The notes under the pieces were generated by a model. It was not told the DNA's origin, made no database searches, and saw nothing but the letters and a program-made list of their open reading frames with translations. Below, one piece after another: positions 31,717 to 63,278 of a stretch of DNA of 64,000 bases. A program made the position numbers and the translations under genes. How positions within the stretch are numbered: position 1 is the first letter of the stretch; each line of letters starts with the position of its first letter. Origin of the DNA: a virus; the IMG/VR virus record IMGVR_UViG_3300008085_000023, positions 32,001 through 96,000 of that record, one strand, 5' to 3'.

Positions 31717-32150
31717 TACTGTTGCTCCCCTAAAATCATTGGAATGTCGCCGTGATTGCCTTTATGATTTGGATTCTTCCAGCCCAAAGGTTTAATCAAA
31801 TCTGGGAGACCAAATTTATTAGGACGCTCAGCTTTAACACCAGGCTCCTTTGCCATATTAGCATTAAGGATTGTATCCCATGCCTTATGTGCATCAACAC
31901 CCAGAACTTCAAGTGTTCCAATTGCAAAGACACACAAATCAATGAGACCATCAACCACTTCTTCACTGTCGCCTTGTACTAAAGCAGCAGAGAAAGTCTC
32001 AGCTAACTCTTCATTAATCATCAACAAGCGAAAAGACAGATACTTGCGAAGAGTATCGATATTCCCATCGTCAATCTGTTGTTTCATCCACGTATTCACA
32101 CCAAACTTTTGGTGCATTGCTTTCATATCACTAAACCAGTCTACTGACAT
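31716..32150 (-). CDS. MazG-like all-alpha dNTP pyrophosphatase (probable dCTPase/dUTPase)
   Basis: EELAE...EEVVDGLIDL...NMAK...DLIKP.GW. Confidence 0.8.
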   Translation of the reverse strand: MSVDWFSDMKAMHQKFGVNTWMKQQIDDGNIDTLRKYLSFRLLMINEELAETFSAALVQGDSEEVVDGLIDLCVFAIGTLEVLGVDAHKAWDTILNANMAKEPGVKAERPNKFGLPDLIKPLGWKNPNHKGNHGDIPMILGEQQ

Positions 32151-41958: not shown

Positions 41959-43209
41959 TTATCCCTTGACCGATATCAAAGGACGAAGCTTCACGAGAGG
42001 CTCTACAAGATCACTCTGGTTCGCCATAACAGTATCAATATCCTTGTAAGCGCCGGGGGCTTCAGAGACATCCAAGAGGCCCTTATCTCTACCGTGACGG
42101 AAAGGTTTGAATTCACTATGGATGATGCCGTCTAATGAGGCCTCAACATCAGGAGAGCCAGCCATAGAACGTGAGTAAGCCTTACGACTCATCGTTCGTC
42201 CAGCCCCATGGCTACACGACATCAGAGATAAGTGATTCCCAAGACCTTTGGTAATATATGATGGAGTACCCATAGAACCCGGGATGATGCCTACGAGGCC
42301 TTCTGATGCCTTAGTTGCGCCCTTCCGGTGTACCCATAGGTTCCTACCATAGTGATTCTCCAGCGCCGCGTAGTTGTGGTGAATGTTGATCATATTATAC
42401 TCAGCCTGGCCAGTCACCTTGGACCATGTGATAAACTCAACATCTGGGAAGTGATCCCTGAATGCAGCCTTAACTTCCTGCATCATCACTCTACGGTTTA
42501 GATAGGCAAAGTCCAAAGCGAAGTTCATCCACGAAATATAGCCCTTACCCAATTCAGTGGTCGTTGGGATGTACGCAATATCGTGGGAAATGCAATAATT
42601 ACTCAATACTGACCTCGCAAGATCGTTGAAATAATCACCCGTCACCTTACCCAAGTTACGTGAACCCGAGTGAACCATAGCCCAGATACCTCCAGCTTCG
42701 TCAGCCTGAATTTCGATGAAGTGATTTCCACCGCCCAACGTACCAAGCTGATCCCAAACTGCCCGAGGATAGTCATCAACAGGCGCGTGCTTAATAGCGT
42801 TATCATCCAATTCAAATTCCATATCATTGAAGTCTTTCTCAAAAACAATCGAAAGTTCCCGAGCCCGGTCTTTCGAATTGTGAGAGAAGCCCGTAGGGAT
42901 ACGACGAGTGATGTTGCTGAATAACTTCTGACGAACATCATCACTGAGGTCATCAATTAGGAGGTCGGTTTTCATTGCACACATTCCGCAGCCGATGTCG
43001 GCTCCTACAAAGTTGGGTACGATGATGTTGTCTGTAGCAACAACTCCACCAATACACATATCCATCCCAAGGTGGCCATCAGGCATCAGACAGGAGTGTA
43101 CAGTGAAAGGAAGGTTAGCTATTACCTTCATCTGATCGATAGCATTCTGGGCCACATCAGGAGCCCAAGAACGGATCTCCTTACCAGTATCTGTAGTAAT
43201 AATATTCAT
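41959..43209 (-). CDS. rtcB: RtcB RNA ligase
   Basis: MPDGHLG, VGADIGCGM, LGTLGGGNHFIE, HSGSR, HHNYA, IPGSMG, SHGAGR, EAPGAYK. Confidence 0.95.
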   Translation of the reverse strand: MNIITTDTGKEIRSWAPDVAQNAIDQMKVIANLPFTVHSCLMPDGHLGMDMCIGGVVATDNIIVPNFVGADIGCGMCAMKTDLLIDDLSDDVRQKLFSNITRRIPTGFSHNSKDRARELSIVFEKDFNDMEFELDDNAIKHAPVDDYPRAVWDQLGTLGGGNHFIEIQADEAGGIWAMVHSGSRNLGKVTGDYFNDLARSVLSNYCISHDIAYIPTTTELGKGYISWMNFALDFAYLNRRVMMQEVKAAFRDHFPDVEFITWSKVTGQAEYNMINIHHNYAALENHYGRNLWVHRKGATKASEGLVGIIPGSMGTPSYITKGLGNHLSLMSCSHGAGRTMSRKAYSRSMAGSPDVEASLDGIIHSEFKPFRHGRDKGLLDVSEAPGAYKDIDTVMANQSDLVEPLVKLRPLISVKG

Positions 43210-57045: not shown

Positions 57046-57657
57046 TTATTCATCATCGTCGTCATTAGTCTTCTCCCTAACAAGGAATGAATCCAAGAAG
57101 GGTTTCCACTGAGGCTTCATATCGATATGAGCAGTCATTTGATTCATATGCAAAAACCACGAAGGCTTCTTAGGTTCAAACAACAATCTCATTCCTGCTT
57201 CTTCAGGTGTACGGTCAGCCTTGAAATGATTGCAGGGCTTGCATGCAGAAATTGTATTCTGCCATGACTTTGGTCCACCGAATGATTTCGGATTGATGTG
57301 ATCAACCGTCAATTCCTTTTTGGTGAATGTTTGGCCGCAGTAACCACAACGATATCCATCGCGCACAAATAAGCTTTCACGCGAAAACTTTACTTGGTTC
57401 TTTGGAAGACGATCGAACTGGGTTAGAATTACAACCTGTGGTACAGCTATACGATTATTAACCGTATGGATGATGTGCTGAGTAGGGCTCTGCTCAATCT
57501 TAAGAGAAGCGTCTAGCCAACTTTTGAAGTTATATTGAATATAGTTTTGATCCACTACGTGGCATTTGTCCTGCATCAGCAGCGACATAGTACGCTTCCA
57601 ATTGATAACATGTATAGGCATGAAAACCTTGTTTAAAACTAGTGCGTCTCTTTTCAT
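57046..57657 (-). CDS. HNH endonuclease (McrA-like)
   Basis: RDGYRCGYCG...TVDHINP...ACKPCN; start moved to MKRDAL. Confidence 0.85.
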   Translation of the reverse strand: MKRDALVLNKVFMPIHVINWKRTMSLLMQDKCHVVDQNYIQYNFKSWLDASLKIEQSPTQHIIHTVNNRIAVPQVVILTQFDRLPKNQVKFSRESLFVRDGYRCGYCGQTFTKKELTVDHINPKSFGGPKSWQNTISACKPCNHFKADRTPEEAGMRLLFEPKKPSWFLHMNQMTAHIDMKPQWKPFLDSFLVREKTNDDDDE

Positions 57658-57673
57658 AATATTACTTTCAATT

Positions 57674-57749
57674 TGGAGGATGCAGTGAGAATCCAACTCA
57701 CACAATCACGGTTTGCAGCCGTGCGCCTTTAGCATTCAGCCATACACCC
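57674..57749 (-). tRNA. tRNA-Cys(GCA)
   Basis: CACGG-CTGCAAA-CCGTG, CCA. Confidence 0.9.
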
Positions 57750-58053: not shown

Positions 58054-58127
58054 TGGTTGCTTCACCGGGATTCGCACCCAGACAAAGAGCTTCAAAGACT
58101 CCTGTGCTGCTATTACACTATGAAGCA
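58054..58127 (-). tRNA. tRNA-Gln(TTG)
   Basis: GGAGT-CTTTGAA-GCTCT. Confidence 0.9.
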
Positions 58128-59728: not shown

Positions 59729-59812
59729 TGGTGGCGAAGGTAGGAATTGCACTTACAAGTCCGAAGAGGGTGATTTACAATCACTTGAGCCCACTACCTG
59801 CTCAACTCCGCC
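59729..59812 (-). tRNA. tRNA-Tyr(GTA)
   Basis: AGTGA-TTGTAAA-TCACC. Confidence 0.85.
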
Positions 59813-59821
59813 GTGTTAAAT

Positions 59822-59910
59822 TGGTGGGAAATGGTGGTAACGCACCACTTGTCTACTTCCGTTCTGTTTTTCGACGTTGGTTTTACAGACCAATGAACGG
59901 TACATCTCCC
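59822..59910 (-). tRNA. atypical D-armless tRNA-Tyr(GTA)-like RNA
   Basis: Acceptor GGGAGAT/ATTTCCC-ACCA, TTGGT-CTGTAAA-ACCAA; no D hairpin; CCGTTC complementary to GAACGG in variable loop. Confidence 0.7.
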
Positions 59911-59976
59911 AAATAAAAATATGGGCCCTTATTACGGGTTTTCGACCGCGCGAGGGGCTAACGCCATGCTATTTGT

Positions 59977-60143
59977 TTTTGAAAGAGGTTCACCATAAAC
60001 GCTCAACAATTACCTAGGATGTTAAGCTTTCTCTGCTGACGTATCTTGCGATTGGATAGCTAATCCGGTGCGGCGAGAGTCGATTTAAGGACGTTTGCCA
60101 GACAAAACTAGAAACTGACCACAGACTGGTGAATCTTTCAAAA
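59977..60143 (-). ncRNA. putative rod-shaped ncRNA, 6S-like architecture
   Basis: Terminal helix TTTTGAAAGA-TTCACCA / TGGTGAA-CC-TCTTTCAAAA, central unpaired region, apical stem. Confidence 0.45.
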
Positions 60144-60220
60144 TGGTAGGACAGTTCAGAATCGAACTGAAATTATTTCTCGGTGTAAACGAGGTGCCAT
60201 AACCATTAGGCGACTGTCCC
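60144..60220 (-). tRNA. tRNA-Val(TAC)
   Basis: CCTCG-TTTACAC-CGAGA. Confidence 0.9.
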
Positions 60221-60900
60221 TACATAAATTTTCCACGAAGACCATCTCGTTTGCGGCCTTTCGTGTGATGTTGTGTATTTTCGTATCTCTTAATCAATGC
60301 TTCTTTTACATTTTTTACATGCTCAAGTGTTTTTGGTGTGCCCTTAAGCGCGTTTTTTACAATTGCTCTTCGACAATTCTCTGAACAAGACATACGATCC
60401 AAGCTAATTGATTTACCACAGTTTTTACAAAGGCCAGAACCCCTTTTATTCCAAGCGCTTCTGCCTTTCACCCACCCTTTCGGAATAATGGTATCATTAG
60501 AAATTCGGCTATTCTCTTTAAGCTCGATATTAGAAATCCACATTGTTCCAAACGAGCCATTAAATTTACCAACGCGCTTCTTACCATTAGCGCGCCATGT
60601 ATCTAAGCACATTTTTCGAACCGCTTCATACATGCGGGAATTGCGAATATGAGGAATACCACGTTCTTCACATCTCATTGCCATCATATGACAAGCATGG
60701 GCCATCTGTTTATTTTTATATATTCTAAATAAAAGTAGATGAGCAATCCAATGTTCACGACCTGTTAAAATTACTATATTAGTTAAAGAATAATCACCAC
60801 CCATTGATTTGGGTAATATGTGATGCCGCTCGGTATAGCCTATGGCCGGGTGCTGAAGACGTGTATTGATTAGTGAATCGTAAATATATTTGTAGTTCAT
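60220..60900 (-). CDS. HNH homing endonuclease in tRNA array
   Basis: Start MNYKYIYDSL after TATAAATA; YTERHHILPKSMGG...EHWIAHLLL. Confidence 0.85.
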   Translation of the reverse strand: MNYKYIYDSLINTRLQHPAIGYTERHHILPKSMGGDYSLTNIVILTGREHWIAHLLLFRIYKNKQMAHACHMMAMRCEERGIPHIRNSRMYEAVRKMCLDTWRANGKKRVGKFNGSFGTMWISNIELKENSRISNDTIIPKGWVKGRSAWNKRGSGLCKNCGKSISLDRMSCSENCRRAIVKNALKGTPKTLEHVKNVKEALIKRYENTQHHTKGRKRDGLRGKFM

Positions 60901-60920
60901 AAGGTTATTTATATATTTGC

Positions 60921-60984
60921 GAACTTTCAAACCCCCACAATCTGCGTGTAAAACAGAGGTTCTAGACCTTTGAACTAACAGGGC
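60921..60984 (-). pseudogene. 3'-truncated tRNA-Val(TAC)
   Basis: GCCCTGT, D arm, TCTGT-TTTACAC-GCAGA; breaks off in T loop just before HNH promoter. Confidence 0.75.
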
Positions 60985-60992
60985 ATTAAAAT

Positions 60993-61083
60993 TGGCGGAT
61001 GGAGTGAGACTCGAACTCACACGTGTTTTACCACTAACTGTTTTCAAGACAGCAGCCCGTAGACCGACTTGGCTTATCCATCC
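60993..61083 (-). tRNA. tRNA-Ser(TGA)
   Basis: GCTGT-CTTGAAA-ACAGT, long variable arm. Confidence 0.9.
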
Positions 61084-61093
61084 ATAAAAAATT

Positions 61094-61163
61094 GTTCGGT
61101 GTCCTACCGTTAGACGACCACCCCGCAGTGGAGTAAGCAGGACTCGAACCTGCATTTCCGAAC
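61094..61163 (-). ncRNA. circularly permuted tRNA-like RNA (YrlA-type topology)
   Basis: Order: anticodon-stem 3' strand, T arm, closed acceptor stem, D arm, anticodon-stem 5' strand. Confidence 0.75.
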
Positions 61164-61169
61164 GTTCAT

Positions 61170-61268
61170 TGGTCAGGGATGTGGGATTCGAACCCACGAG
61201 GCATACACGCTTAGTATACCTATCCGGTTCCAAGCCGGACGAAGATAACCAGACTCTTCCAATCCCTG
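61170..61268 (-). tRNA. tRNA-Pro(TGG) with long variable arm
   Basis: C1-G72, A73; TCCGG-CTTGGAA-CCGGA; 8-bp variable stem. Confidence 0.85.
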
Positions 61269-61359: not shown

Positions 61360-61445
61360 TGGCACCTAGGGTAGGAGTCGAACCTACAGTTGACTTTCGT
61401 CGACGGGTTAACAGCCCGCTGCAATACCATTCTGCTCACCTAGGT
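61360..61445 (-). tRNA. tRNA-Asn(GTT) with extended variable arm
   Basis: GCGGG-CTGTTAA-CCCGT; GAC-GAAA-GTC variable hairpin; G73. Confidence 0.85.
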
Positions 61446-62005: not shown

Positions 62006-62674
62006 TTAAAACTTTATCTTACGGCCGATAAGCCAGCCCTCAGGCACCAGCATATCTTTTGGAACTCGTTTTGAGACCTTTTCATATGGGTTGTAAATCC
62101 ACTTGGTCCCAAATTGGGAATTCCGACTGCCCAATTGACTAATTTTATTAGCCGACCCGATTCTTTTCTTAGCATCTTCTGAATGAGTTTTGCCAAGAAA
62201 TGCTCGAGTATTCTTACGCTTTAAGAAATCTGGATCATCTTCAATTTTTAGTTTCAAACCCGTAACCCCTTGAATTGCGAGAATACTTCGCCAATTAGGA
62301 CCATACTTCGCCTTTAATTTTTCATCTGCAGCGATCCGGCCTTTACGGGCAACTTCAACGTTGGAAAATCCATTGAGATTGTTTTTATTGATTAAATCCC
62401 AACCTCCAGAACCACCAACCTTTAGGTTATATGTGTTTTCTTCAGTTAAGAAATCTTCATTAACGATCTCAGCTTCTTTAGCATACATGTCTTCAGGGTT
62501 GTCGTAAACGAACAAAATCTCTTTGGTAAAGTTTTCAATACCATTCTTCTTTTGAGCTCGTTTTAGATACTTACCTGAACCCATATAATTGTCATTCGGA
62601 TCAATGGTCTTATGGCTTCCAATATAGAACTTGCCATTGATCCGATTCGTTATCTTGTATATCGTATAGAACAT
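62006..62674 (-). CDS. GIY-YIG (Seg-like) homing endonuclease in tRNA array
   Basis: TIYKITNRINGKFYIGSH, YMGSG, YNLKVGG; TATAAATA upstream. Confidence 0.9.
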   Translation of the reverse strand: MFYTIYKITNRINGKFYIGSHKTIDPNDNYMGSGKYLKRAQKKNGIENFTKEILFVYDNPEDMYAKEAEIVNEDFLTEENTYNLKVGGSGGWDLINKNNLNGFSNVEVARKGRIAADEKLKAKYGPNWRSILAIQGVTGLKLKIEDDPDFLKRKNTRAFLGKTHSEDAKKRIGSANKISQLGSRNSQFGTKWIYNPYEKVSKRVPKDMLVPEGWLIGRKIKF

Positions 62675-63203: not shown

Positions 63204-63278
63204 TGGTCCGCGATGGTGGTAACGCACCACCTTTCCCTGTGTATCAGACAGGAGTAATAACTTTTATACTAATCGCGG
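63204..63278 (-). tRNA. tRNA-Ile(GAT)
   Basis: CCTGT-CTGATAC-ACAGG. Confidence 0.9.

Follow-up and report, generated by a model that had tools for sequence, protein, structure and literature searches.

A phage tyrosine tRNA gene lacking a D hairpin and predicted to fold as a pseudoknot

All known bacterial tRNAs are described as cloverleafs, and tRNAs lacking arms are said to exist only in mitochondria (PMC11551756), where mammalian mt-tRNA-Ser(AGY) and nematode mt-tRNAs do without a D hairpin. An artificial D-armless tRNA is nevertheless used by the unmodified translation machinery of E. coli (PMC11551756), while metagenomes have yielded allo-tRNAs which, like tRNA-Sec, depart from the usual partition of the acceptor and T stems (PMC7609411). 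Tyrosine tRNA, a class II molecule in bacteria (PMC7609411), is also a target in phage defense: Septu and retron-Eco7 PtuAB stop phages by cutting tRNA-Tyr in its variable arm, the tRNA-Tyr of T5 resists through a distinctive variable loop, and homing endonucleases next to phage tRNA-Tyr genes help escape by amplifying them (PMC11555353, PMC13096335). Here we describe an 89-base phage gene which, on comparative evidence and without expression, processing, charging or probing data for the gene itself, is probably a working tyrosine tRNA that is not a cloverleaf. It has no D hairpin, and appears to rebuild that helix by pairing with a strand inside its own variable arm. The design is conserved in many phages and in bacterial tRNA arrays, is missed by tRNA finders, and is absent from the papers that could be searched, including a review of non-canonical tRNAs that mentions neither phages nor pseudoknots (PMC7609411).

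The gene and its genomic setting

The analyzed window is a 64,000-nucleotide stretch (positions 32,001 to 96,000) of the IMG/VR record IMGVR_UViG_3300008085_000023, a 141.9-kb phage contig with direct terminal repeats found in aquifer and spring metagenomes. It encodes DnaB, a DNA polymerase, RtcB, and CobS/CobT-like proteins. Positions 57.6-63.5 kb hold a minus-strand array of more than 30 tRNA genes, interrupted by genes for HNH and GIY-YIG endonucleases (Table 1). The gene is the only family copy in its genome. The initial annotation had noted an intact acceptor stem with ACCA, intact anticodon and T arms, only ten nucleotides (GUA-CCGUUC-A) between the acceptor and anticodon stems, and an exact complement of CCGUUC within a GUC...GAC variable arm. 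All of these statements hold, although some details need correction. The G of “GUA” is paired, so that the acceptor stem has 8 bp, one of them G-U, the T stem has 4 bp, and nine nucleotides separate the acceptor and anticodon stems. The T loop does not follow the UUC consensus, and the neighboring tRNA-Tyr, called conventional in that annotation, is a weak cloverleaf with two non-standard pairs.

Table 1. Features of the D-hairpin-less tRNA-Tyr gene and of its surroundings (window coordinates).
Position	Strand	RNA position	Feature	Remarks
59903..59910	-	1-8	Acceptor stem, 5′ strand	The 8th pair (alignment A3, columns 8-92) makes the fold 8/4
59901..59902	-	9-10	Two-nt connector	UA here, mostly UU or CC in the family
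59895..59900	-	11-16	P helix, 5′ strand CCGUUC, in the place of the D arm	Family pattern CCNNNC; pairs with RNA 47-52
59877..59893	-	18-34	Anticodon arm, stem UUGGU/ACCAA (5 bp), loop CUGUAAA (U33, GUA, A37)	Anticodon GUA at 59884-59886; stem 98% paired, 4 co-varying pairs
59873..59875	-	36-38	Variable-arm stem, 5′ strand GUC	Pairs with RNA 58-60
59865..59872	-	39-46	A-rich strand of the variable loop	Three A positions conserved in 29-33 of 35 sequences; a role in groove contacts is inferred
59859..59864	-	47-52	P helix, 3′ strand GAACGG, inside the variable loop	Within a 28-nt variable region
59854..59858	-	53-57	Segment AAGUA after the P helix 3′ strand	Its A-G is the likely stand-in for D-loop G18-G19
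59851..59853	-	58-60	Variable-arm stem, 3′ strand GAC
59834..59848	-	63-77	T arm, 4-bp stem, loop UGCGUUA	Same 18 nt in the window's tRNA-Ile(GAU); stem 97% paired in the family
59826..59833	-	78-85	Acceptor stem, 3′ strand	96% paired; all 8 pairs co-vary
59822..59825	-	86-89	Discriminator A and encoded CCA	A in 33 of 35 sequences; CCA encoded in most
59729..59812	-		Neighboring cloverleaf tRNA-Tyr(GUA), 9 nt downstream	Called by ARAGORN; RF00005 33.2 bits; G at T-loop position 55
58054-58127			tRNA-Gln(UUG)	G at T-loop position 55
63204-63278			tRNA-Ile(GAU)	G at T-loop position 55
61170-61268			tRNA-Pro(UGG), 99 nt	Long extra arm, unusual for this class I specificity
61360-61445			tRNA-Asn(GUU), 86 nt	Long extra arm, unusual for this class I specificity
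57046-57705, 60220-60990, 62006-62674			HNH, HNH-like and SegE-like GIY-YIG homing-endonuclease genes	Interrupt the tRNA array
59911-60143			233-nt spacer between the gene and tRNA-Val	No ORF, tRNA or Rfam match
61075-61176			Weak Rfam match to the Y RNA-like YrlA, between two tRNA genes	25 bits, E 0.05
41959-43209			RtcB

The gene escapes standard annotation. ARAGORN does not call it in bacterial mode, with introns allowed, or at a lowered threshold, and its mitochondrial mode gives a 57-nt call with wrong borders. The Rfam tRNA model RF00005, whose gathering cut-off is 29 bits, gives no match even at E<=10 in a 211-nt search. An alternative fold with a small D hairpin (ACCG, 5-nt loop, UGGU) and a 17-nt anticodon loop was rejected, since it destroys the perfect anticodon arm and is not conserved in relatives. 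Taken alone, the sequence is suggestive but not decisive: an exact 6-nt complement between the connector and a shuffled variable region arises in 3.0% of 200,000 shuffles (p about 0.03), and the minimum free energy (MFE) fold, which contains the 6-bp helix (hereafter the P helix) but not the 3-bp variable stem, has a z-score of only -1.82. The DNA contigs covering the gene are identical to the window, leaving no population variation to use, while the one metatranscriptome holds a contig identical to 59926-60088 within the spacer but none on the gene, which says nothing either way. A divergent DNA variant from a hot-spring run covers 59923-60168 with many changes.

A family with covarying helices

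The comparative data are what decide the matter. BLAST of the 601-nt region, of a 17-kb region and of the 89-nt gene against GenBank phages found nothing, nor did queries from L200 and L188 (L and G numbers denote the phage loci and larger phage genomes collected here). Synteny through the neighboring RNase H-like gene also failed, as relatives are at most 49% identical and have no array beside that gene, and the array of the 170-kb relative G001 is not collinear. An exact 24-mer scan of viral contigs was empty, and a single metagenome scan with a 21-mer returned only ordinary tRNA-Tyr genes. Pattern scans anchored on the anticodon arm, followed by inspection of the flanks, did however reveal the same layout in many viral contigs, with 6/6 complementarity found in the raw sequences without any alignment and with quite different letters in the P helix, such as CCUAAC/GUUAGG in L032, CCGGUC/GAUCGG in L188 and CCCCAC/GUGGGG in L213. 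A covariance model, R1, was built from 19 of these sequences. In all, 35 distinct sequences score 41-96 bits with this model, 33 of them at 58 or more, against 35 or less for ordinary tRNAs in about 2 Mb of phage arrays. The window's copy scores 95.6 bits, the second best, while the two lowest are the L032 copy (52.5), which has the two helices but an irregular 3′ part, and a second UCU-anticodon member in L238 (40.7).

The family is not confined to IMG/VR. BLAST with a family member found unannotated copies in two cultured phages, Pseudomonas phage Rembedalsseter (85.9 bits with R1, but only 26.3 with RF00005) and SCYZ1 (75.8 bits), as well as in an oyster-associated Melvirus genome. One scan of GTDB genomes gave 11 hits, all of them family members (64-92 bits) inside tRNA arrays of Alphaproteobacteria and Verrucomicrobiales MAGs. 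Nor is the fold tied to tyrosine: in L247 (1491-1578) and L238 (4885-4971), the same 8/4 pseudoknotted design, with a 5-bp P helix, the variable stem, and GG or AG after the P helix 3′ strand, occurs with a UCU anticodon (loops CUUCUAA and GUUCUAA) and discriminator G or U. In the Melvirus phage it is the only tRNA-like gene. What looks like a more divergent member, at 1372-1468 of L044, has no D hairpin, a 5-bp helix between the connector and the variable loop with one G-U, a 4-bp variable stem and GG after the 3′ strand. It scores only 31 bits with R1, so the family is wider than the model's reach.

Base pairs were counted on the 35-sequence alignment (A3). Standard pairs are formed in 97.7% of 900 cells, against 38-52% when partners are slid by 1-3 columns, and no shuffle of 500 reaches the observed covariation score. 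The P helix is 98% paired, with three invariant C-G pairs and three middle pairs carrying 18-22 double substitutions each. The variable stem is 100% paired, with five pair types at its middle pair, and because it was not part of the model used for the alignment it constitutes an independent test. The strands of this stem lie on either side of the P helix 3′ strand, so the two helices cross, as in an H-type pseudoknot. Pair counts on the nested helices do come from an alignment fitted to them, members were found with patterns that fixed parts of the motif, and the sequences are related, so that cell counts overstate the number of independent events; that both helices form at the same time is inferred from the covariation of each. 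The base after acceptor pair 7 pairs with the base before the acceptor 3′ strand in 34 of 35 sequences, with five pair types, whereas the conventional first T-stem pair forms in only 12 of 35. This 8/4 partition was not in the model either. The structural reading of the initial annotation, that the D stem may be rebuilt by a pseudoknot with the variable loop, is thus supported.

Its suggestion that the L shape could be kept receives indirect support from the segment that follows the P helix 3′ strand, which is of AAGU or UGGU type. The second base is A in all 17 sequences whose T-loop position 55 is G, while the other 18, with U55, carry GG there, and the next G accompanies C56 in 33 of 35. 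Thirteen cloverleaf cousins obey the same rule in their D loops, with GG and U55 in ten and AG and G55 in three. The segment therefore looks like the stand-in for G18-G19 at the elbow, although shared ancestry inflates the counts and this remains a lead rather than a proof.

Function and alternative explanations

Several lines of evidence place the gene in the tyrosine slot. The anticodon loop is invariant apart from the two UCU members, A73 is present in 33 of 35 sequences and G1-C72 in 29 of 35; together with the GUA anticodon and a long variable arm, all present in the window, these are probably the features by which bacterial TyrRS selects its tRNA. ARAGORN covers 19 amino acids, missing only Tyr, with 25 tRNAs in L075 and with 46 in the 97%-complete 255-kb phage G007; in the 360-kb G006, 41 tRNAs cover 18 amino acids, with Asn and Tyr missing. 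Of 27 family-bearing loci tallied, 23 have no tRNA-Tyr call at all, and in Rembedalsseter the gene is the only tRNA-like one in the genome. In the window, as in L220, a cloverleaf tRNA-Tyr sits beside it, so that on paper the gene is redundant here. Several family-bearing phages (L203:1186-1259, L209:3498-3571, G006, G007) also carry a CUA-anticodon tRNA, called Pyl by ARAGORN, that is, a possible amber suppressor.

The explanation we favor, with fair though not complete confidence, is that of a functional tyrosine tRNA with a rewired core. It would be transcribed with the minus-strand array and cut out like its neighbors. An 8-bp acceptor stem stacks on a 4-bp T stem, and six bases just before the anticodon stem pair with six bases in the loop of the long variable arm, whose own 3-bp stem also forms. 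By inference, the P helix stacks on the anticodon stem where the D stem normally sits, and the A-G after its 3′ strand touches G55-C56 of the T loop, which would keep an L-like shape. Host TyrRS would then charge the molecule through G1-C72, A73, the anticodon and the variable arm, allowing it to read UAU and UAC. Why such a fold? The initial annotation proposed escape from nuclease or toxin recognition, and burying the variable loop in a helix might indeed protect it from the nucleases that cut the tRNA-Tyr variable arm. This is our preferred motive, made plausible by the work on Septu and retron-Eco7 (PMC13096335, PMC11555353) and by the endonucleases and RtcB carried here, a GIY-YIG enzyme next to the T6 tRNA-Tyr being known to drive amplification that defeats Septu (PMC13096335), but it is pure inference.

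Could the molecule instead be a decoy or regulator, mimicking tRNA-Tyr to soak up or misdirect a tRNA-Tyr-directed nuclease, TyrRS or a modification enzyme without delivering tyrosine to the ribosome? Its core is unlike any tRNA known to work in bacteria (PMC11551756, PMC7609411), the window and L220 keep a cloverleaf Tyr beside it, and phage tRNA-Tyr has been discussed as a possible decoy or supplement (PMC13096335). We consider this unlikely, since the gene fills the only empty specificity in near-complete tRNA sets and keeps every feature needed for decoding and charging, including a 12-bp acceptor/T stack; furthermore, a decoy for a nuclease that cuts the variable arm should keep that arm ordinary, yet this is the part that is remodeled. 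It is less likely still that the two helices are alternatives between which the RNA switches, the P helix being then a simple extension of the anticodon arm. The nested MFE fold and the fact that covariation shows only that each helix is selected would allow it, but a 3-bp stem closing a 20-nt loop would be negligible on its own and makes sense only if the P helix holds its loop. The loop lengths (7-10 nt and 4-8 nt) also allow an H-type knot, and the covariation with the T loop fits one compact fold. As for a decayed or rearranged pseudogene, left by recombination in an array full of homing endonucleases and with a chance complementarity, the weak single-sequence statistics and the adjacent working cloverleaf Tyr speak in its favor. 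This is however very improbable, being contradicted by the recurrence of the architecture, with compensatory changes, in 35 distinct sequences from unrelated phages and bacteria whose extensive stem variation excludes recent copies of one element.

A broader reading can be offered only tentatively, and is more likely wrong than right. The knotted core would be a general, second way to build a bacterial-type tRNA, evolved by phages so that their tRNA-Tyr cannot be cut by Septu or retron-Eco7 PtuAB, then reused for other anticodons such as UCU. Such genes would work in unmodified host translation and would be invisible to all standard tRNA annotation, so that phage and array tRNA repertoires would be systematically under-counted.

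A natural, widespread, pseudoknotted tRNA working with bacterial synthetases, EF-Tu and ribosomes would overturn the view that bacterial tRNAs are always cloverleafs, would show how the L shape can be rebuilt from different parts, and would give genetic-code engineers a natural orthogonal-looking scaffold.

Comparison with known tRNAs and tRNA-like structures

The closest relatives are the class II cloverleaf tRNA-Tyr(GUA) genes of bacteria and phages, the nearest being the phage genes L033, L037, L039, L069 and L073. Their anticodon arm is identical or near-identical, A73, G1-C72 and an encoded CCA are shared, the variable-arm stem directly follows the anticodon stem (GUC/GAC also in L037), and the unusual T loops ending CGUUA are common to both. 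The D-stem letters CCGU/ACGG recur as part of the window's P helix. The cousins have an ordinary D hairpin (4 bp, 7-nt loop) and a 3-nt variable loop, whereas here the D loop and the 3′ D strand are absent, and the partner strand lies in a 20-nt variable loop. The family thus derives from a phage tRNA-Tyr lineage by loss of the D loop and its 3′ strand, and by growth of the variable loop.

Like the mitochondrial D-armless tRNAs, the molecule has a short connector between the acceptor and anticodon stems. In those, however, the connector is unpaired, the variable region is short, the shape is a Y, and the partners are co-evolved organellar machinery, while here the connector is paired, the variable region is long, and the setting is bacterial cytosolic translation. 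With tRNA-Sec and the allo-tRNAs (8/5, 8/4 and 9/3 stacks), it shares a 12-bp acceptor/T stack split 8/4, a 6-bp helix in the D position, a long variable arm and discovery in metagenomes (PMC7609411), but those keep a D hairpin and carry SerRS identity (G73), whereas the P helix is intermolecular in topology (connector with variable loop) and accompanied by a discriminator A and a GUA anticodon. The tRNA-like structures of plant RNA viruses (TYMV, BMV) are also viral and also use a pseudoknot to imitate part of a tRNA, yet they are 3′ ends of eukaryotic viral genomes, carry the pseudoknot in the acceptor arm and are not decoders, contrary to this free-standing gene with a normal acceptor stem and anticodon arm. 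Finally, the counter-defense tRNA-Tyr genes of T5 and T6 are likewise phage-encoded, in an array with GIY-YIG and HNH homing endonucleases, and resistance to retron-Eco7 and Septu PtuAB is reported to rest on a distinctive variable loop (PMC11555353, PMC13096335), but they are cloverleafs.
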